IMG/VR virus record: IMGVR_UViG_3300037225_001359
Location: 1 to 58,189 of that record
From: a virus
Taxonomy: Duplodnaviria > Caudoviricetes
DNA length: 58,189 nt
Direction: 5' to 3' (one strand)
Below the pieces are notes generated by a model that searched no databases, had not been told where the DNA came from, and saw only the letters and a list, made by a program, of their open reading frames with translations. The translations under genes were made by a program, and so were the position numbers. Shown piece after piece: positions 557 to 54,729 of the stretch. The first letter of the stretch is position 1, and each line of letters opens with the position of its first letter.

Positions 557-595
557 TTTACTTTCTCCTTTAAAATTATATATTTTTATAACAAT

Positions 596-611
596 ATAAA
601 TTCTTTAGAAA
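596..611 (-). promoter_or_regulatory. Putative late promoter motif, copy 1 (TTTCTAAAGAATTTAT)
   Basis: One of 8 intergenic copies of TTTCTAAAGNWTTTAT on the coding strand, just after an upstream stop codon. Confidence 0.65.
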
Positions 612-614
612 AAT

Positions 615-1205
615 TCAAATTCCCTGCGGTAAGAAATTAATTCTCCAGACAAGTGCCATTTCTGCGTTTGCGGGTTTGCTGATTGCAGAAAATGTCAAAT
701 AATTAAACATTGTTCCACTATTAGCTGTTCCTGATGCATCTCCACCGAATAATCCCATTTCCACTAAAATCGCATCAAGACCTCCCAAACCACCCGGAAA
801 TGTGAATTCAAAATCTACGATCCAAGTTGGCGGAGTAGCCTGATTGATAAATGTGTTGGGATCAACAAATGGTATACCCGTGTTTGTTCTTATAACTCTA
901 GCTGCTTCTGTCACAAGCTGTGTTGTTCCAACAGTTTGCAATGGCGGATTGAATGGATCCCATCCCGGATCTCCAGTTCCGACAGCAAGATATGTAATTC
1001 CTGACACAAAACTTGCCGGACTTGTCGTTTGATTTGCCCATCTTGCAAGTAATAAGCTAGCAGAATCGACAATAATGTTTTTCAAATGTCGGTCTGGATT
1101 ATTGACAACATCATCGTGCTTAAGATCCTTCCCAATCTTAATAAAAACTTCACCAGTAAAATTGAAATGGCAATTTTCTGTAAACATCATTTTCTTTTTT
1201 TTCAT
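615..1205 (-). CDS. Baseplate / tail-fibre attachment (tail-collar-fibre-like) structural protein
   Basis: Motifs KNIIVD, ITYLAVGTG, EMGLFGGDA, GTMFNY..F..ISK, LVWRINF resemble the small protein that follows baseplate wedge genes in myoviruses. Position fits. Confidence 0.6.
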   Translation of the reverse strand: MKKKKMMFTENCHFNFTGEVFIKIGKDLKHDDVVNNPDRHLKNIIVDSASLLLARWANQTTSPASFVSGITYLAVGTGDPGWDPFNPPLQTVGTTQLVTEAARVIRTNTGIPFVDPNTFINQATPPTWIVDFEFTFPGGLGGLDAILVEMGLFGGDASGTANSGTMFNYLTFSAISKPANAEMALVWRINFLPQGI

Positions 1206-7598: not shown

Positions 7599-7624
7599 CT
7601 CAAATCCTCACAATTAATGGAAAA

Positions 7625-7771
7625 TTATTTCTTTCTTTCAGAGCCTTGGTGTTCCTTGCCGCAAACAGTGCAATGTAGTTTTGTCCCGTCCTTATTTGGA
7701 CAACAAACTCTCATACCTTTGCCATTTAATTCATCTTGGCCTTCATGTTGACATGAACATTTCAAAATCAT
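7625..7771 (-). CDS. Small Cys/His-rich putative zinc-binding protein (48 aa), not in ORF track
   Basis: Manual translation MILKCSCQHEGQDELNGKGMRVCCPNKDGTKLHCTVCGKEHQGSERKK. AAGGAG RBS upstream. Fills the gap between two genes. Confidence 0.7.
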   Translation of the reverse strand: MILKCSCQHEGQDELNGKGMRVCCPNKDGTKLHCTVCGKEHQGSERKK

Positions 7772-7790
7772 GATCTACTCCTTTTTAATT

Positions 7791-13557: not shown

Positions 13558-13573
13558 ATAAAATCTATAGAAA
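13558..13573 (-). promoter_or_regulatory. Putative late promoter motif, copy 2 (TTTCTATAGATTTTAT)
   Basis: One mismatch to consensus, immediately after the TAG at 13576. Confidence 0.55.
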
Positions 13574-32077: not shown

Positions 32078-33316
32078 TTAATTTTGTTTAATTTTACGCT
32101 TATTTAAAACATCATCAATTCGCTTCCACCGTTCTTCACTTTTCTTTTTCATTTCTTTCAACACTGAGGGTCCGAAATCAACTAACTGTGCTTGCTGTTT
32201 GATGGGATTGATCACCATTTTTTCTTTCTTAGAATCAGCAAGCGCTTTTTCAACATGTTTCGAAATATCAATTTCAAAATTCATCATTTCTTCAAAAATC
32301 ATCAATTTTATTTTCTTTGAAATTTCAGCAAATATCTTTTCATGTATAAGTTCTGAATAATCGATTCCGTTCCGATAAAAATCTCTTTTTTCTTCTTCAG
32401 CAATTGGTTCTTGATTTTCATCATCAAATTCATCAACTTTTTTCGATCTTCTTGCTATTTCTTTAGCAATATCAAATTTCATCCTTTTCGCTAATATCAT
32501 TCTTTGTAGCATCATTATTTCATATTTTCTAACTGCCAACGCATGATCATCAAGTTTTTCACCCTTCAGACATTCTTTGACAGCTTCACTAACACGTTGT
32601 GCATATTCATCTTTTGTTTCGTCACTCTTTTTGTTTAAATTGTCAAAGACTTCCATATCAGCATTATCAAATTCATCATTACTATCATCTGCAATTTTTC
32701 CAGTCAAAGCTCGTTCTAAGTTTTGTGAAACATTAAAATTTTTCTCTAATTTTTTGTATTCTTTGGGATTTAAAAACGCACAAATATACTTAGCTAAATA
32801 TTCTGACCTTTGCCATTCATAAAAATTACTTTCAATTAAATCTAAACTATTGTTCGAAATTATCCAATATAATTGAAATTCGTTGACATCTTCCAGTTCT
32901 TCAAAACTTTTCTGAACATTTAACCTTTTGAATAAAACCCAATAACTCTTAGACAATTCACATCTGACAAAATCTTCTAAATCTTCTAATAAACTTCGAA
33001 TCTGAACCAGCATTTTATCATACAAATAATACAAATATCTCGTAATAGCTGGATTGAATCTGTTCAAATAATCAGCAATTTGACTCTTTTCAATTTTGAT
33101 TCCATTTATTTTTTCGATGCTTAGAGTCAATAATTCTATAACTAGAACAAAGTTTTTAGTTGACTTTTCACCCTTATATTTTTCTTGTAAATATCTTTGT
33201 TCTTTTTTATTCAAATTTCTAAATGTAATCTTTTTATCACCAATATCAAAATCGTATTCAAGATATCCCTGTAATATTAATTTTAATATGGCACTTTGTT
33301 GCTCTTCATTAGTCAT
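32078..33316 (-). CDS. Tail assembly chaperone-like protein with long C-terminal extension
   Basis: N-terminus (GYLE.D..I....TFR.L ... LSIEKING) parallels the 31306-31788 protein. Confidence 0.55.
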   Translation of the reverse strand: MTNEEQQSAILKLILQGYLEYDFDIGDKKITFRNLNKKEQRYLQEKYKGEKSTKNFVLVIELLTLSIEKINGIKIEKSQIADYLNRFNPAITRYLYYLYDKMLVQIRSLLEDLEDFVRCELSKSYWVLFKRLNVQKSFEELEDVNEFQLYWIISNNSLDLIESNFYEWQRSEYLAKYICAFLNPKEYKKLEKNFNVSQNLERALTGKIADDSNDEFDNADMEVFDNLNKKSDETKDEYAQRVSEAVKECLKGEKLDDHALAVRKYEIMMLQRMILAKRMKFDIAKEIARRSKKVDEFDDENQEPIAEEEKRDFYRNGIDYSELIHEKIFAEISKKIKLMIFEEMMNFEIDISKHVEKALADSKKEKMVINPIKQQAQLVDFGPSVLKEMKKKSEERWKRIDDVLNKRKIKQN

Positions 33317-33329
33317 AATGTGCGTTTTG

Positions 33330-33345
33330 ATAAAAAGTTTAGAAA
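33330..33345 (-). promoter_or_regulatory. Putative late promoter motif, copy 3 (TTTCTAAACTTTTTAT)
   Basis: One mismatch to consensus, 13 nt upstream of ATG 33316. Confidence 0.6.
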
Positions 33346-33363
33346 TTTAAGTCTGAGAAGAAT

Positions 33364-33402
33364 AAGTGTTCTCCCCTGGATTGCTAGGGTCAATGAACAC
33401 TT
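33364..33402 (-). ncRNA. Kink-turn-containing RNA hairpin (cis element or small RNA)
   Basis: Minus strand AAGUGUUC-AUU-GA-CCCU-AGCAAUCC-AGGG-GA-GAACACUU gives an 8-bp C helix, 3-nt bulge, tandem G.A/A.G pairs and a 4-bp NC helix. Confidence 0.6.
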
Positions 33403-33430
33403 GAAGTAGAAATACAATCCTATTGAAGCA

Positions 33431-33664
33431 TTAACGAAGAATTGCTTTTTTCATTATCATGTCAACTATGTTTGTTATTCGTTCTGGTAAATCTTTTCGT
33501 TTTGTGTGTGCAAAATCTGACAAATCTTTCTTTTTCATGTGCCCAGCTAAATCTTTAATTTTTTCTTTTAAAGAAGCAGGCACATCCTTTAAAGAAAGCT
33601 CGCCTTTTTGATAAGCCCAAGCCATACCCATTAGACGCTGCTGTGTTTGACTGACTGAAGGCAT
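33431..33664 (-). CDS. DUF3008-family small protein
   Basis: MPSVS..QQR.MG.A.A..KGE...M.K.DL.DFA.TKRK.LP matches the DUF3008 pattern. Confidence 0.7.
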   Translation of the reverse strand: MPSVSQTQQRLMGMAWAYQKGELSLKDVPASLKEKIKDLAGHMKKKDLSDFAHTKRKDLPERITNIVDMIMKKAILR

Positions 33665-33670
33665 AATTAA

Positions 33671-34318
33671 TTATCCATTTGAAAATTTGAATAAATTACT
33701 TGCCAGCTTATTGCTTGTCTGCGCATCAACCAATTCCGTTTCATAATCATCCATGGGCTGAGCATAAATATCGGTGACAGTCATATCAGCATCCTGTGTC
33801 ACGATTGTATCAGTTACATTGAATGACTTATTGTATGATGTCAACCAGCAAGCTTCATAAATTGTTTCGATAATGTTTGATCCTGCATCAGCATCAGTAG
33901 CAACACCAGCACCTGTATTTTCACCAGTCAAGACAAGCAAATCGGGCATGACGATTGTTTCCTTGACGTCAAAGGGCCATCTGTGATGTTGCAAAGACCG
34001 AATCAAACCCGATGATCCACCTTTGTATCCGAAAATCTGAGATGTATCTTTTAAATACATCATCAAAATCGAACATGTTGCTGTCAAGTCAGTCACACCG
34101 ACACCAAGTTCTGCTGTATGGTCTCCATGACCGATACCACGAGCAGGATCAACCGTTCTTGATTGCGATGGACTCCATGTTTGGATCAATCCAATTTGAG
34201 CATATTGTCCTGCAGCAGCGTCAGAATCAAAACTAAATACTCTGACCCTCTGACTGCTTAACAATCTTGTATTCGGAGATGCTCCCCTACGATAAATATA
34301 ATTCGGTGTTCCGGCCAT
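33671..34318 (-). CDS. Tail tube protein
   Basis: Follows sheath. QIG.IQ.W.PSQSR......GIG, PFD..E, IYE.CW..SY...F, strong AAGGAGG RBS. Confidence 0.8.
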   Translation of the reverse strand: MAGTPNYIYRRGASPNTRLLSSQRVRVFSFDSDAAAGQYAQIGLIQTWSPSQSRTVDPARGIGHGDHTAELGVGVTDLTATCSILMMYLKDTSQIFGYKGGSSGLIRSLQHHRWPFDVKETIVMPDLLVLTGENTGAGVATDADAGSNIIETIYEACWLTSYNKSFNVTDTIVTQDADMTVTDIYAQPMDDYETELVDAQTSNKLASNLFKFSNG

Positions 34319-34354
34319 GTTAGCCTCCTTTAAAGAAAATTCTATTTTGATTAA

Positions 34355-34388
34355 GTTTCAATCCACACATCACTAAATGTAATGCGAC
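34355..34388 (-). CRISPR. Solitary type I-C CRISPR-repeat-like unit (no array)
   Basis: GTCGCATTACATTTAGTGATGTGTGGATTGAAAC has the GTCGC start and GTGGATTGAAAC end of I-C repeats. Stem CGCATTAC/GTGATGTG (8 bp, two G.U pairs) forms only on this strand. Confidence 0.7.
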
Positions 34389-34404
34389 TATAACTATAAA
34401 TAAA

Positions 34405-34420
34405 ATAAAAACTTTAGAAA
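34405..34420 (-). promoter_or_regulatory. Putative late promoter motif, copy 4 (TTTCTAAAGTTTTTAT)
   Basis: Consensus copy downstream of the sheath terminator and 16 nt upstream of the repeat-like unit. Confidence 0.7.
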
Positions 34421-34483
34421 ATTAACTTTTTGTAAAAAATTACATCACAACAATAATGTGTCATGTGAAAATGTTTAAAATAC

Positions 34484-34518
34484 AAAAAATCCAGAGAATA
34501 GTTTTAGTATTCTCTGGA
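34484..34518 (-). terminator. Intrinsic terminator after the tail sheath gene
   Basis: 11-bp stem TCCAGAGAATA/TATTCTCTGGA followed by TTTTTTG on the minus strand. Confidence 0.8.
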
Positions 34519-34557
34519 CTTAATAAATTAGATTAAGCAATTTTCATAAATTGTTAA

Positions 34558-37311
34558 TTATGATGTCCTTAGGCCATATTCTACTAATATCCAGTCACAT
34601 CCGAATACTGGCACATAGTAAGCTGAAACGTTGATCATCTTGGGATTGTTAGGATCTCTGACAGCAGTTGCAGGAGTATAATTAGAAATGATTTGTGCCT
34701 GTTTTGCTGCCCTTAACATTGCTGTATCAGTCCTTGCAACATCATTAGTAAATCCATCAACAATCTTTCTTCCAATAAACGGATCCAGAACCTGTCTTGT
34801 CTGCTGCTGGATAAAGTCAGAAATTGTTGTAACTGCAGGATCACTCGTTATTATATTCGACATGTTTGTTGACAAACTATGACGAACTGTGAAGTTTTGA
34901 GTAATTATCGTTACACCCTTAATTGCAACCATATCCATCGTCGGTTCATCCAACGTTCTGACTAATTGCTTCAATCCGACGAGCTGTTTTCTCGTCATTG
35001 GAGTCGCAACATCATACATTGAATTAACATTTAAACCAACCATTGCAGCCGCCAAATATGAACCTTCAATAACATGATCCGTTGCCACTCCATTTGTATC
35101 GACAAGCTGAATCGTTGCTCCGTCAGGATATACAGCGAGCATCCTCTGATTATTGATCGAAGCAGCAAAATTAGCAGCATCCAAGGGCTCAGTTCCAACG
35201 GCATATCCGAAGAAAGAAGTTCTTTCTCTGCGATATCTCTTGGATGACATCTGAGTCACATGAGCTGTAGTATATTCAATGACTGACTGAGAAGATGTAA
35301 CAGGAAAAACGATTGAAGGTGCAACTCCTGAAACGTCTGATTTCAAAACATCCAGCGCATCAAAATAATATTGATCTGGTGCAACTTCCGAATCTGCTCC
35401 CTTTCTGACTTGATAGCAAATCAATGCAGTTGCTCCGTTTAACATTGCCAAATATGCAGCAAGAACAAGAGAATTGTTTTCACTCAATGCGCCATATTCA
35501 TTTGTAACATCTTTGAACTGTGTAAAAACAGCAGGTTCGAAATCAGTTTTCACATAAGTATATGTGACATAATAAACATCACTGACAGCAGGTTCTTTTC
35601 CCGACTTATTGAAAATATACAATTTCGTCAGATCTCCAGCTGCTGTGATTGGATCAAAAGCATTCTCTGTCGAAAGAACATCGACTGTAGCACCCGGTAT
35701 GCTTGTCAACGTATTACTTAATGTCGAACTGACAGGAATTATTGCCGCAGCTTTTTCAATAACCATTTGTATCGTCACTGATGAAGTAACAACACTTTCA
35801 TCTAAAGTAAAAAATAATCCCGTGTTGACATCAATATACGTCGAACCGACAGTTCCGTATCCGTTCGATCCAGCTGATTGATCAGATGTTACAGCAAATC
35901 CCAGACTTGAAGTTACAGTGATCGTCACATTTTCATCGATAGCATAATCAAGAGGAATTGTCGGTAATGAATCAGAATAAAATTTGCCCTGATCAGTCAC
36001 AAGCAAACCGACATTGCCAACGTCGATCTGATTTCCAACAACATCATTGTACCAAACATGATATTGACCAACATCCTGTCCGCCTGCAGTTATAACTTCA
36101 ACGTTATACTGACCATCAATGATTCTGCTATACCAATATGTCACAGTAACCGTTGAACCAGGAGCAGGAGCACTAACCAAAGTTATTTTTCCGATATCGC
36201 CCTGTACTCTTCTGACATCAACCTCGGTTCCGTTAACTTTAACAACCACTGATGTCTGATCGACAGTATAGATGTCGATCGGATTCATTTGCGGACTTGT
36301 ACTCTGTCTTGCAGTTCCGTTGACAATAGGAATAATTGAAACAGTACAAAAGTTTTCAGTTCCTGTAAATTGACTAGAAACATCTTCTTTGTATTTCTTA
36401 TTATCAAAAACAGAAACAACAATCATATTATCATTGAAAATTCCTGAATCATTGGGATCTGGAACTAATTTCCAACCTGTACCCCACTGAATCTGGTCAT
36501 CAATAATCGCAAAATCAACATCTTCAATGAAATCTGATGTTTCAGGAGAATATCCGACACGAATCATCTGTGTTAAACCAGCAACTGGAAGATCGTCAGA
36601 TGTATTGGGATATTGATTGAAAAAGTATGTTACAGTAACAGTTGCATTCAGTGCAGGAGCAGTTGCCAGCGTAATTGCACCATTAGCTCCATCGAGATGT
36701 ATGACATCAGCAAATGAATTGCTGACCTTAACTTTGACATCAGAGACATTTGTCGTTACTCGTCCTGCGTTTGAACCATCAACAATGGGTTCATTTGCAA
36801 CATAAAAAGTCGTTGTCGATCCGTCAGCCTGATCTGACAGATTTTCATTCAAAATTCTGGTATCAGTTCTTTTGTAGAAATATGCAATCGTAACAGTAGG
36901 ATTTGATGTACCAGTCGGATTAGGAGCAAGTGCTAAAACAACTGTTCCCGAAAGACCAACAATCGAAGCAACAATCGCAATTATACCATCGACTTTAACA
37001 ACGATGTTATTAGCTTTGTTAGTAATAGTTCCTGAACCATCACCTGTTACAATTGGCTTATGAAAAGTTGTAAAAGTACGATTTCCCAAATTTCCCATAC
37101 CATCAAAAAAACTTGAAACATCTTCAGTAACTTTCTGATCAATAGTCGGCGAACTACCACGAACCATCTCATAACCATCAAGCAAATTGACTTCTTCTGC
37201 AGTACCTATCAAAGCCGGTACACGCAAATTAGCCAATAATGTTGCAATCGGTTGATCGAGGAAGGTTGAGGTGTAAGTTCCGGGTGGCGCGTAGCCAACA
37301 AATGGTCCCAT
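34558..37311 (-). CDS. Contractile tail sheath protein with inserted beta-domains
   Basis: N-terminal Y.PPG.Y. C-terminal sheath core (H..QMSS..YRRER, GSYLAAA..G, PMTRK...G, GVT.I, TISDFI..R..L..FIG.K, I.V...Y.PVF....I.V). Confidence 0.9.
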   Translation of the reverse strand: MGPFVGYAPPGTYTSTFLDQPIATLLANLRVPALIGTAEEVNLLDGYEMVRGSSPTIDQKVTEDVSSFFDGMGNLGNRTFTTFHKPIVTGDGSGTITNKANNIVVKVDGIIAIVASIVGLSGTVVLALAPNPTGTSNPTVTIAYFYKRTDTRILNENLSDQADGSTTTFYVANEPIVDGSNAGRVTTNVSDVKVKVSNSFADVIHLDGANGAITLATAPALNATVTVTYFFNQYPNTSDDLPVAGLTQMIRVGYSPETSDFIEDVDFAIIDDQIQWGTGWKLVPDPNDSGIFNDNMIVVSVFDNKKYKEDVSSQFTGTENFCTVSIIPIVNGTARQSTSPQMNPIDIYTVDQTSVVVKVNGTEVDVRRVQGDIGKITLVSAPAPGSTVTVTYWYSRIIDGQYNVEVITAGGQDVGQYHVWYNDVVGNQIDVGNVGLLVTDQGKFYSDSLPTIPLDYAIDENVTITVTSSLGFAVTSDQSAGSNGYGTVGSTYIDVNTGLFFTLDESVVTSSVTIQMVIEKAAAIIPVSSTLSNTLTSIPGATVDVLSTENAFDPITAAGDLTKLYIFNKSGKEPAVSDVYYVTYTYVKTDFEPAVFTQFKDVTNEYGALSENNSLVLAAYLAMLNGATALICYQVRKGADSEVAPDQYYFDALDVLKSDVSGVAPSIVFPVTSSQSVIEYTTAHVTQMSSKRYRRERTSFFGYAVGTEPLDAANFAASINNQRMLAVYPDGATIQLVDTNGVATDHVIEGSYLAAAMVGLNVNSMYDVATPMTRKQLVGLKQLVRTLDEPTMDMVAIKGVTIITQNFTVRHSLSTNMSNIITSDPAVTTISDFIQQQTRQVLDPFIGRKIVDGFTNDVARTDTAMLRAAKQAQIISNYTPATAVRDPNNPKMINVSAYYVPVFGCDWILVEYGLRTS

Positions 37312-37381: not shown

Positions 37382-37397
37382 ATAAAAACTTTAGAAA
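37382..37397 (-). promoter_or_regulatory. Putative late promoter motif, copy 5 (TTTCTAAAGTTTTTAT), upstream of sheath
   Basis: Consensus copy 3 nt after the TAG at 37401. Confidence 0.7.
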
Positions 37398-40427: not shown

Positions 40428-40443
40428 ATAAATACTTTAGAAA
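40428..40443 (-). promoter_or_regulatory. Putative late promoter motif, copy 6 (TTTCTAAAGTATTTAT), upstream of tail fibre
   Basis: Consensus copy in intergenic gap. Confidence 0.7.
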
Positions 40444-42514: not shown

Positions 42515-43579
42515 CTATAGATTATAATTTAATGAATTCAAAAGACAACCTTTTGCAACAGACGTCAATTGGTCTTTTGCAATCTTCACTTGTTTAATTT
42601 TAAATGGTAATGTTTTTAATCTAAGTTCTTTTTCAAAAAGTTTTTCAAAATTACCGGCTTTCGATGTTCCACCACTAACAACAACTGTTATTGGCTCTGG
42701 AAAATTAGGAATATTTTCTGCATGATTTAATTTCTTTTCAAGCGCATTACAAACATAATTGATTAAATGTTCATAATAAATTTTAATTGCTGTTTCTTCT
42801 CTATTTTTAGGATTTAACAAATCGATTCCTGCTTCTTTTATTGCAGTTATTCTCGATGTATTCAATCCAACAGCGGCTCCTGCGCCAGCATCGATCCAAT
42901 CACCAGCTCTAGATAATGAAAATTGATGCTTTTCATTTGAAATTCCCAAGAAAGAAAGTGCACAATTCACCATTCCCGCGCCGAATGACAAAGACAAGCC
43001 CATATAGCCTTCATCTTCTAATTCAGCCAAAGTAATTGCAAAAGCTTCATTCAAAGGAATTGCTTTAAATCCGAAAGAAGAAATAAATGACTTTAAAATA
43101 TTTGTATGATAAATTACATTCTGGTCTGGTGCATCAATCGAAACACCAGGTACTGAAAAATGACATACTTCATCGTCTTGAATCGGATCACCAATCAATG
43201 CATGAAGTATGACCTTAATCATTGAAAGAGCTTCTTTTTCATGAGTTGAGATAACACCTTTTGCCAATGGACGACGTATGTTTTGATTGAAAAAATTTGC
43301 TAAATTAAATGCCTCTTCGCCGATAATATATAATCTTTTTTTATCTTCACTTTCTATATAATTTGCATTTAATTTTGCTAGCATATTTTTCGACATCTGG
43401 TCATTATCAACATCGAAAAACGCATCTCTTTGGACTTTGAAACTTGCTATTTTATTTTTTGAAATAGCAGAAACACATGTCATCGTTCCTACATCAACTC
43501 CGAGTCCCAAATCTCTTGCTATGCTAATATTTGTTTGCACTTTTTTCTCTTCTTTTTTTTCTTCTAAATTAATGTCCAT
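42515..43579 (-). CDS. Actin-fold ATPase (MreB/MamK/ParM/FtsA superfamily)
   Basis: Phosphate-1 GVDVGT, RRPL..GVI, FSVP, connect-1 LNEA.A, phosphate-2 SFGAGMVN, AGD.ID, adenosine VVSGGTS, connect-2 VAKG.L. Start moved to MDINL. Confidence 0.85.
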   Translation of the reverse strand: MDINLEEKKEEKKVQTNISIARDLGLGVDVGTMTCVSAISKNKIASFKVQRDAFFDVDNDQMSKNMLAKLNANYIESEDKKRLYIIGEEAFNLANFFNQNIRRPLAKGVISTHEKEALSMIKVILHALIGDPIQDDEVCHFSVPGVSIDAPDQNVIYHTNILKSFISSFGFKAIPLNEAFAITLAELEDEGYMGLSLSFGAGMVNCALSFLGISNEKHQFSLSRAGDWIDAGAGAAVGLNTSRITAIKEAGIDLLNPKNREETAIKIYYEHLINYVCNALEKKLNHAENIPNFPEPITVVVSGGTSKAGNFEKLFEKELRLKTLPFKIKQVKIAKDQLTSVAKGCLLNSLNYNL

Positions 43580-43589
43580 AAATCCATCC

Positions 43590-44045
43590 TTATTTTGTAA
43601 ACGTGAACGGCAACCCATTGACTTTCGTCACATTGCGGACATCTAAATGATTCCATGTTACACCAAGTTCCAGCCCTGAAATAAATTGAAACTCTGGCTG
43701 ATTTGGCTTTGTCAAAATATCATTAATCACAGTTGAAGCCGGAATTTGTCCAAAATTGACATCCAGAGCAATCAAAAATTTGTGAGGATCCAGAGGACCA
43801 GTTTGTGTATATGTTGACGGTCGAGCTCCTCGATATGAAAATTGTCCGCCCTGTTTCCAATTATTTATCAAAGCCGATACACCATATAATTCTCTCATGA
43901 CATCCACAGTCCATAAAATATATTTATTCCACATCCACCAACAAAGTTCTTCGCCATTTGCTTTAAGCAGTTCGGGACACATGATTTCTTCAATTTTAAA
44001 ATATTTACATCGGTATGTTTGTCCAGCTACAGGAATCGGGATCAT
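43590..44045 (-). CDS. Peptidase M15-family Zn peptidase, putative endolysin
   Basis: YFKIEE..CP, D.MRE..G....INNW, RG.R, H......D, W.HLDVR motifs. Confidence 0.75.
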   Translation of the reverse strand: MIPIPVAGQTYRCKYFKIEEIMCPELLKANGEELCWWMWNKYILWTVDVMRELYGVSALINNWKQGGQFSYRGARPSTYTQTGPLDPHKFLIALDVNFGQIPASTVINDILTKPNQPEFQFISGLELGVTWNHLDVRNVTKVNGLPFTFTK

Positions 44046-45632: not shown

Positions 45633-45851
45633 TTAGTGATGAACCATTGGCATACAAATCGGATGAGCATCCAATTCTATGCCCAATAAGTCAAACCAAC
45701 AATCATCACACACGAAACCTTTGTCTGACTTTCTTCTACCGGTTATAGTAGTTTGCAGCGGTACTTTACATATCTTGCACTTTTCTGTACCTTGCAGAAG
45801 AAAATTAGGATCTTTCATTCTTTTCTGAAATTCAATTAATGTGTATGCCAT
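45633..45851 (-). CDS. Small CxxC...CxxC zinc-finger protein
   Basis: CKIC...CDDC. First gene after late motif copy 7. Confidence 0.6.
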   Translation of the reverse strand: MAYTLIEFQKRMKDPNFLLQGTEKCKICKVPLQTTITGRRKSDKGFVCDDCWFDLLGIELDAHPICMPMVHH

Positions 45852-45878
45852 AATTTTATTCCTTGACTAGCAAATTAT

Positions 45879-45894
45879 ATAAAAACTTTAGAAA
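45879..45894 (-). promoter_or_regulatory. Putative late promoter motif, copy 7 (TTTCTAAAGTTTTTAT)
   Basis: Consensus copy abutting the TAA of the glycosyltransferase gene. Confidence 0.7.
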
Positions 45895-48891: not shown

Positions 48892-49112
48892 GCAAGCTCC
48901 GTAAGTCTTTTCATAATAAATTCATAACCGTGTTCAGTATGAGGTAATGTACATCCAGAACAATCTTTTTTGCCATTTTTCAACATAACAAAATTTCCAC
49001 CACAGTCATAAGAATATAAACAACAAAAACAGAATTTGCAGTTCTGATGTGCGATTTGGTGGCAGGGAAAATATTTACAATCAACGTTAGAAAAGTGTTT
49101 GTATGAATTCAC
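48870..49112 (-). CDS. Cysteine-rich small domain protein (zf-like)
   Basis: F.N..C.YFPCH....NC.FCFC.LY...CGG.......KDCS.C..PH signature. Confidence 0.8.
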   Translation of the reverse strand: MNSYKHFSNVDCKYFPCHQIAHQNCKFCFCCLYSYDCGGNFVMLKNGKKDCSGCTLPHTEHGYEFIMKRLTELAWKKLTS

Positions 49113-49113
49113 A

Positions 49114-49935: not shown

Positions 49936-49969
49936 GATAAATCTCCCTTAATTTAATTTAAATAAGCAA

Positions 49970-50119
49970 TTACTTTAACTTTTTCAGTTTCAATTTTTCA
50001 GAACATTTCGGACAAATAGTAGAAGTTCTAGATGGATTTCCTTCAGGCTGATCTATCATTTTCCCATCTTTCATAAACCTTCTACATTTTAAACACTGAG
50101 CTAAAACATCTTCTCTCAT
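49970..50119 (-). CDS. Small zinc-ribbon protein (49 aa), not in ORF track
   Basis: Manual translation MREDVLAQCLKCRRFMKDGKMIDQPEGNPSRTSTICPKCSEKLKLKKLK. TGATG overlap with upstream stop. Confidence 0.6.
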   Translation of the reverse strand: MREDVLAQCLKCRRFMKDGKMIDQPEGNPSRTSTICPKCSEKLKLKKLK

Positions 50120-54713: not shown

Positions 54714-54729
54714 ATAAAAGCTTTAGAAA
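54714..54729 (-). promoter_or_regulatory. Putative late promoter motif, copy 8 (TTTCTAAAGCTTTTAT)
   Basis: Consensus copy just after the stop at 54734. Confidence 0.7.

Follow-up and report, generated by a model that had tools for sequence, protein, structure and literature searches.

We identified a solitary repeat of the type I-C CRISPR kind in the IMG/VR record IMGVR_UViG_3300037225_001359 (Duplodnaviria; Caudoviricetes), where it forms part of the 5′ leader of a gene with a predicted tail-tube fold. The whole 58,189-nucleotide (nt) record was analysed and is referred to here as the window. Read on the minus strand from 34388 to 34355, the element is GTCGCATTACATTTAGTGATGTGTGGATTGAAAC, 34 nt long and with ends like those of type I-C repeats; its sequence and coordinates are as the original prediction had given them. 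We interpret it, with moderate confidence, as a genuine solitary repeat unit (SRU) that derives from a type I-C repeat and is a candidate RNA anti-CRISPR (Racr), whose most likely function would be that of a decoy RNA directed against a host I-C system.

The element carries both ends of type I-C repeats (5′ GTCGC and 3′ GTGGATTGAAA(C/T)). All 17 end positions are unchanged but one, and that change retains a G.U pair. The repeat has GTG rather than GCG ahead of its tail, as do 17 of the 229 distinct viral I-C-like repeats among the matches listed. On the coding strand the sequence folds into an 8-bp stem (nucleotides 3–10 with 16–23, including two G.U pairs) with a 5-nt loop, leaving overhangs of 2 nt at the 5′ end and 11 nt at the 3′ end, the latter starting with UGG. 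In window coordinates (minus strand), the 5′ overhang occupies 34388–34387, the stem arms 34386–34379 and 34373–34366, the loop 34378–34374 and the 11-nt tail 34365–34355. The predicted energy of the coding-strand fold was −8.1 kcal/mol, a value equalled by 4 of 200 shuffled sequences; the opposite strand reached −1.4 kcal/mol, equalled by 111 of 200. Because the hairpin forms on the coding strand only, the earlier argument that the G.U pairs of the 8-bp stem work solely on the transcribed strand holds. The stem is strongly AT-rich, an unusual feature of this repeat: its inner G+C fraction (0.20) was the lowest of the 229 viral repeats among the matches listed, for which the next value was 0.22 and the median 0.67. 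Rfam returned no CRISPR-DR match on the coding strand, and we disregarded the one weak match on the opposite strand (E = 3.2).

A chance origin of the repeat is excluded for practical purposes. Given the base composition of the window, one would expect both conserved ends to be matched 5.4 × 10^-6 times per window; adding at least eight stacked pairs in the canonical register reduces the expectation to 1.7 × 10^-8, and even across approximately 250,000 windows it amounts to only about 0.004. The repeat is also no assembly chimera, because contigs from two other public DNA runs, belonging to other studies, were letter-identical over the repeat and its flanks (34229–34490 in X3 and 34338–34499 in X4). 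Not counting the possible source run, five DNA runs from five studies, all labelled as peat metagenomes, contained at least half of the sampled words of window positions 33000–36000. Contigs from four of the five matched the window exactly where they covered it; the sole exception was a 36-nt piece, with six differences, from an X4 contig that is unrelated. These runs are DNA contigs, in which RNA ends are invisible and stretches without cover carry no meaning, and none of the 13 runs listed for the stretch was an RNA run.

The repeat is solitary. The exact 12-mer at its tail occurs once in the 58,189-nt record, and no second or partial repeat was found within 150 nt on either side that scored above shuffled sequences (scores of 13 and 12, reached by 69 of 500 and 166 of 500 shuffles). 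There was no array-like tandem repeat in the 58-kb record, and Cas7c and Cas5d profile searches of the record gave no match; the same searches detected both proteins in two other viral records, which served as a positive control. A single copy without an array or cas genes in 58 kb thus identifies the element as a solitary mimic and not as an array repeat, and bears out the earlier statement that the window has neither. In the terms used by SRUFinder, it is intergenic, lying in the 239-nt gap at 34319–34557, and neither a complete repeat nor part of one occurs within 100 bp of it.

Several lines of evidence connect the element to type I-C systems. A pattern combining its ends with a compatible stem base matched at least 120 arrays in species genomes of Bacillota, Bacteroidota and other groups, and both of the arrays that we examined adjoin Cas8c/Csd1, Cas7/Csd2, Cas4, Cas1c and Cas2 genes, with the Cas8c/Csd1, Cas7/Csd2 and Cas1c models scoring above their curated cut-offs. 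The I-C label is therefore supported, and with it the I-C end sequences on which the original prediction had relied. In canonical I-C repeats a stem of 7 nt carries a pentaloop and is flanked by a 2-nt and an 11-nt overhang, and recognition by Cas5c centres on the cut site, the adjacent UGG and the 3′ overhang rather than on the loop or the 5′ overhang (PMC8524198). All of the recognition features described there are present in the phage repeat: the stem base, UGG past the cut site and the 11-nt tail. By analogy with that work, the predicted Cas5c cut would fall between 34366 and 34365. The phage repeat shares with the canonical I-C repeat (PMC8524198) the GTCGC start, the GTGGATTGAAAC end, the 2-nt and 11-nt overhangs, the pentaloop and the UGG after the stem; it differs in being a single copy of 34 nt with eight pairs, two of them G.U, and 20% inner G+C. 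Among the 120 arrays listed, repeats were 32 nt (83 arrays), 33 nt (35), 34 nt (1) or 35 nt (1) long, so that 118 of the 120 have repeats of 32–33 nt compared with the 34 nt found here.

The position of the repeat suggests how it would be expressed. Every long open reading frame (ORF) of the record is on the minus strand, and the repeat follows, in the same orientation, a phage promoter-like motif, TTTCTAAAGTTTTTAT. An exact copy of this motif (34405–34420, minus strand) ends 16 nt before the repeat, and the 16-nt A/T-rich stretch between the two (34389–34404, minus strand) probably contains the transcription start. Downstream of the repeat, the remaining 36 nt of leader, the 'pseudo-spacer' (34319–34354, minus strand), include a Shine–Dalgarno (SD) sequence, AAGGAGG, at 34330–34324 and run up to the ATG (34318–34316) of the tail-tube-fold gene (33671–34318, minus strand; 215 amino acids (aa)). 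The only other match in the window to the first 20 nt of this remainder has four mismatches. A terminator-like hairpin of 14 pairs followed by a T run (34487–34521, minus strand) lies after the upstream gene and sets that gene apart from the tube gene's promoter motif. The original prediction had described a 'late motif' 16 nt upstream and a distance of exactly 36 nt, including AAGGAGG, between the repeat and the tube ATG; the distance is accurate, and the motif, putatively late, is real in that it recurs.

The motif is over-represented in the window: 12 matches with up to three mismatches were found, compared with 4.8 expected, and 12 was reached by none of 100 shuffles. All eight matches with up to two mismatches lie on the coding strand. 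The exact copies are at 34405–34420, 37382–37397 and 45879–45894, those with one mismatch at 33330–33345, 40428–40443 and 54714–54729, and those with two at 596–611 and 13558–13573 (all minus strand). Within the 14 largest gaps, the motif precedes the sheath-like, tube, tail-fibre-like and other genes. A promoter scan with the sigma-70 consensus found no match to the motif, which is probably read by a phage-specific transcription system. One copy ends just 13 nt ahead of the ATG of the ORF 33316..32078; if that start is correct, transcription would begin within a few nucleotides past the motif, because only 13 nt separate it from the start codon there. A start that close would in turn make the repeat the first structured element of the tube mRNA.

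The identity of the downstream gene rests on a structure model. The 215-aa protein had no match in Pfam, PHROGs or PDB sequences and, because sequence searches gave nothing, a fold search was needed to name it. The AlphaFold (AF2) model, built from 48 homologues with a mean predicted local distance difference test (pLDDT) score of 63.4, gave as its best Foldseek matches in the PDB the tube proteins of phage 812, PVC, lambda and others (E = 6 × 10^-6 to 1 × 10^-4), a predicted fold that is consistent with the 'tail tube' label of the original prediction. All 92 homologues of the protein are unnamed, and many are on contigs of 100–480 kb. The closest protein relative, with 72% identity, is on a contig of only 1,610 nt.

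On the basis of these features, we propose a model in which the phage uses the repeat as RNA. Kept in the sense orientation behind a structural-gene motif, the repeat would be transcribed as the first part of the tail-tube mRNA leader. In a host with a I-C system, Cas5c would recognize the stem base together with the UGG and the 11-nt tail; having cleaved behind the stem, it would remain bound to the handle. Cas5c and Cas7, possibly with Cas8c, would in this way be occupied by a plentiful RNA that is no guide, at the expense of CRISPR RNAs (crRNAs), and immunity could thereby be inhibited. RacrIF1 is cut by Cas6f, and its inhibitory part is a 70–76-nt RNA upstream of the cut, to which Cas6f and a Cas7f filament are bound but neither Cas5f nor Cas8f (PMC10651486). 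Because Cas5c binds the handle, the Cas-bearing product in a I-C system would, unlike that of RacrIF1, be the downstream tube mRNA. Intact ends combined with a drifted yet pairing inner stem of 20% G+C fit selection on structure plus handle, and the sense orientation and the position behind a promoter motif fit use as RNA. The idea of a Racr-like decoy, one of the two readings initially offered, thus gains from the Cas5c recognition features and from the solitary, intergenic, co-directional and promoter-adjacent state of the repeat; what it lacks is a cognate array among the sequences searched.

Several observations weigh against a decoy function. Anti-CRISPRs are usually considered to be needed early, and the motif that would drive the repeat precedes structural genes; if that motif is late, the time would be an odd one for an anti-CRISPR. 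The stem is weak, with its energy of −8.1 kcal/mol and two G.U pairs. The exact 34-mer had no match in viral contigs, and a stem-tolerant pattern, in which G.U pairs could become Watson–Crick pairs and the loop could be any sequence, had none in 185,579 species genomes and none in metagenome contigs. The nearest repeats among the matches listed had seven differences in genomes and six in viral contigs, all of them in the stem and loop, so that the comparison with CRISPR repeats that had been suggested at the outset yielded I-C arrays sharing the ends and no cognate array for the full repeat. The best blastn score, against 363 sampled I-C-like repeats, was 34.2 bits over 17 of the 34 nt; the SRUFinder rule asks for at least 90% coverage and at least 41.1 bits against a published set of 17,823 repeats (PMC10651486). 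Similarity-based censuses would probably miss a repeat diverged to this degree, at least when judged against the repeats sampled. Comparison of 2,510 spacers from the fetched I-C arrays with the window gave chance-level matches of up to 17 nt plus one of 19 nt with a mismatch. The repeat was found in none of 52 related tube loci (17 viral and 35 metagenomic), and three one-mismatch matches to the tail motif in those loci were not upstream repeats. Finally, the inhibitory RNA of RacrIF1 comes from upstream of its cut (PMC10651486), whereas the repeat in the phage leader has no more than 16 nt ahead of it.

The absence from the 52 loci means that the repeat was gained in this lineage or lost elsewhere, and it leads to the strongest alternative, that the element is a neutral relic of past recombination with a I-C array, caught in a lineage-specific expansion of the sheath–tube spacer and without present function. 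Upstream DNA was readable in only six relatives, with tube proteins 49–57% identical to that of the window. In four of these a spacer of 13 to approximately 120 nt, in many cases containing a hairpin, separates the end of the sheath-like gene from the tube start, compared with 239 nt here; one of the other two has another gene inserted and one has only 147 nt upstream. In L276 (approximately 560–870, plus strand), a different gene ends 16 nt before the tube start and replaces the sheath-like gene; it may be a mobile insertion. The longer spacer, the empty related loci and the failure to find a cognate array in viral contigs, species genomes or metagenome contigs would all suit a relic, as would two G.U pairs in an AT-rich stem, which is what drift under A+T pressure would give. 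However, drift able to remodel the stem should also have struck the ends, which are intact but for one change that keeps a G.U pair, and all eight stem pairs form in an exact register; the orientation and the site behind a promoter motif, moreover, suit use as RNA. We regard a relic as unlikely, albeit the most serious competitor to a decoy. The check for conservation upstream of homologous tube genes proposed in the original prediction was thus carried out and found the repeat kept nowhere, in relatives too distant to judge: conservation at this distance says nothing for or against function. The closest large relative (G004, 97% complete) had no Cas5d match, and its matches to the tail motif were at control level only. 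Phage GenBank records contained nothing that matched the 1.6 kb surrounding the site.

We also considered solitary repeats in other viral contigs, in which gene calls were crude (longest ORFs rather than a gene finder) and unreliable in G+C-rich contigs. Among the matches listed, 96 of 137 viral loci had a single I-C-like match, and nearly all of these fold canonically; 50 of the 96 solitary repeats were intergenic, and for 23 of the 50 a co-directional ORF began no more than 75 nt downstream, a few duplicate contexts included. Of 66 distinct intergenic solitary repeats with two neighbours among the matches listed (viral loci L139–L413, with the same crude calls), 41 were co-directional with both neighbours and 13 were opposite to both, a bias towards the sense orientation. 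A full scan of viral contigs for a repeat followed after 2–32 nt by AGGAG returned 52 loci, and 24 distinct solitary repeats in that scan had an SD sequence and start codon 12–43 nt downstream, at distances that were spread evenly. This even spread, with no peak at spacer length, indicates that the 36 nt found here are not part of a spacer-length rule, and the 'one spacer-length' spacing of the original prediction does not extend to a general feature.

The proteins encoded downstream of such repeats were varied. A PHROGs scan named 12 of 30, and five of the 12 belong to the virion, its head or its tail, namely a major tail or tube protein (L225), a head decoration protein (L315), a tape measure protein (L331), a weakly matched tail chaperone (L187) and a weakly matched virion protein (L341). 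The remaining named proteins were an integrase, an SbcC-like protein, a dUTPase, an SSB, an endolysin, a member of a 'replication terminator' family and an Arc-like repressor; a capsid-like Pfam match of L177 fell under the Pfam cut-off. These counts do not establish that structural genes are enriched downstream of leader-type repeats. L225 (4457–4564, minus strand), a viral contig unrelated to the window, has a solitary 31-nt I-C-like repeat 6 nt past a sigma-70-like TTGACT-18-GATAAT; a further 40 nt, which include an SD sequence, lead to the ATG of a tail-tube protein of the lambda type (PF16461, 42 bits; phrog_158). It resembles the window in its succession of promoter-like site, repeat, short SD stretch and tail-tube ATG, and differs in belonging to an unrelated phage with 51% G+C, whose promoter is sigma-70-like, whose repeat is G+C-rich and 31 nt long, and whose tube protein is of the lambda type. 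Because L225 shares the layout and other viral repeats also lie in gene leaders, the leader position, even that in a tail-tube leader, is not unique.

Leader-type repeats in this set precede tail-tube, head-decoration and tape-measure genes, raising the idea that leader-embedded I-C repeats form a class of their own, being the first element of highly transcribed phage mRNAs, which host Cas5c would process, at once draining Cascade subunits late in infection and tying the stability or translation of the structural message to CRISPR activity. We consider this generalization speculative and improbable on present evidence. Were it true, the product would be a handle-capped phage message with a 5′-OH end, its ribosome-binding site covered by Cas5c and Cas7, and the phage would be using a CRISPR nuclease for processing of its own mRNA.

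A narrower version, widened from the second reading initially offered, is that the repeat serves as a Cas5c-dependent processing site of the tube mRNA, through which the CRISPR state of the host would alter the stability or translation of the tube message. Cas5c cleavage leaves a 5′-OH, here on an mRNA that would start with the 11-nt handle, and Cas5c stays with the 5′ handle, that is, with the downstream product (PMC8524198); for RacrIF1, a 5′-OH end was reported to be more stable than 5′-PPP (PMC10651486). The 36 nt fall in the spacer range, so Cas5c and Cas7 could assemble over the ribosome-binding site, and the 24 distinct solitary I-C-like repeats 12–43 nt ahead of an SD sequence and start offer comparable cases. 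Yet those 24 distances show no preference for spacer length, and blocking translation of its own tube protein would bring the phage no evident benefit. Of the proposed coupling between Cascade and tube translation, only the geometry (36 nt on the handle side) stands, the spacing not being conserved among the 24 comparable elements, and we give this explanation little credence.

Still less probable is that the repeat partners a phage-encoded I-C system. CheckV rates the record as 31% complete (G+C approximately 34%), and it is presumably a fragment of a phage of around 190 kb, of which some 130 kb, where such a system could lie, would be missing. Large phages may carry CRISPR systems (PMC11656645), and three large viral records in our searches have arrays of a 36-nt I-C-like repeat: G001 (L142/L145/L147) with 13 copies, G002 (L140/L351/L353) with 14 and G003 (L141/L350/L352) with 3. 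G002 and G003 encode Cas7c and Cas5d above curated cut-offs, and G001 has two solitary repeat variants elsewhere in its genome. These records have no match to the 917-aa sheath-like protein of the window, however, and the 97%-complete relative described above, like the 58-kb record itself, argues against a phage-borne system.

We regard a Cracr-like guide as very improbable. In this scenario the handle and the 36 nt would direct host Cascade to a partly matching promoter, such as that of a cas operon or of a CRISPR-guarding toxin; viral Cracrs that repress host cas or toxin promoters have been reported, with I-C loci among the 219 candidates (bioRxiv 10.1101/2024.10.29.618823). No second (psi) repeat lies within 150 nt, however, and the stretch that would have to act as spacer is where ribosomes would bind the tube mRNA. 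That the element resembles a repeat by chance, or is some other kind of mRNA hairpin, for example a 5′ stabilizer, scarcely merits consideration: 5′ hairpins are common in phage mRNAs and a longer leader fold extends the hairpin into the flanks, but the chance expectation per window is minute and the extended fold, computed for the 105-nt leader and dropped as a candidate, was no better than shuffles (z = −1.57).

Neighbouring genes of the leader have counterparts in relatives. The tail-sheath-like gene (34558–37311, minus strand; 917 aa) keeps its place upstream of the tube gene in relatives, and its product shares 48% identity with a 909-aa ORF that occupies the corresponding place in L002, the closest large relative; the Atlas clusters nearest to the 917-aa protein carry tail-sheath Pfam families, which we treat only as a lead. 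A 412-aa ORF further downstream also has a counterpart in L002 (28% identity). Because both neighbours are common to L002, the gene order of sheath-like gene, tube gene and next gene is conserved. In the window, a 77-aa DUF3008 ORF (33431–33664, minus strand; PF11450, E = 9 × 10^-9) separates the tube gene from the 412-aa gene; the corresponding gap in L002 is 144 nt long and has no ORF there in the list of ORFs of at least 70 aa. Elsewhere, a 367-aa ORF (42515–43618, minus strand) matches the actin-like Pfam family Volactin over nearly its full length (E = 2 × 10^-67), and an actin homologue is thus present in this large phage. Four gaps (7599–7790, 45671–45894, 48892–49113 and 49936–50118, minus strand) contain short Cys-rich frames with CxxC-like pairs, seen by eye and too short for the ORF length cut-offs applied, that may encode small zinc-ribbon proteins.

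If active, the element would be a type I-C RNA anti-CRISPR in an environmental phage of approximately 190 kb, and SRU censuses based on similarity would seem to undercount such decoys; its apparent fusion to a tail-tube leader also prompts one to ask which role a repeat mimic would play at the structural-gene stage. If inactive, it is an ordinary relic.

Among known repeat-derived viral RNAs, Cracrs (bioRxiv 10.1101/2024.10.29.618823) resemble a decoy of the proposed kind in being phage-borne RNAs that load host Cas proteins, with I-C examples; they differ in that their psi-spacer matches a promoter of the host and that a second, degenerate repeat is usually present, and neither feature was seen here. 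The closer comparison is with SRUs and Racrs. Camara-Wilpert et al. (2023; PMC10651486) reported 2,103 viral SRUs, often right behind a predicted promoter and away from cas genes, many of which act as Racrs; for 83% of prophage SRUs the host carries the matching CRISPR–Cas subtype. The main text of that paper does not mention leader placement of solitary repeats (the words 'capsid', 'late', 'UTR' and 'leader' do not occur in it), and its supplementary tables may list such contexts. Like those elements, RacrIC1 among them, the phage repeat is a single intergenic mimic next to a promoter or promoter-like motif and without nearby cas genes. The original prediction had called fusion to a structural-gene leader an arrangement not recognized: the context behind a structural-gene motif in a tail-tube leader is indeed unusual, but it has a parallel in the layout of L225, and RacrIC1 already rides on an mRNA (PMC10651486). 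RacrIC1, which relieves I-C targeting, lies 11 nt after an acrIC5 homologue on a bicistronic RNA and is, like the phage repeat, of type I-C and borne on an RNA that also encodes a protein; whereas RacrIC1 is located 3′ of an acr gene (PMC10651486), the phage repeat follows a structural-gene motif and occupies the tail-tube gene's 5′ leader.

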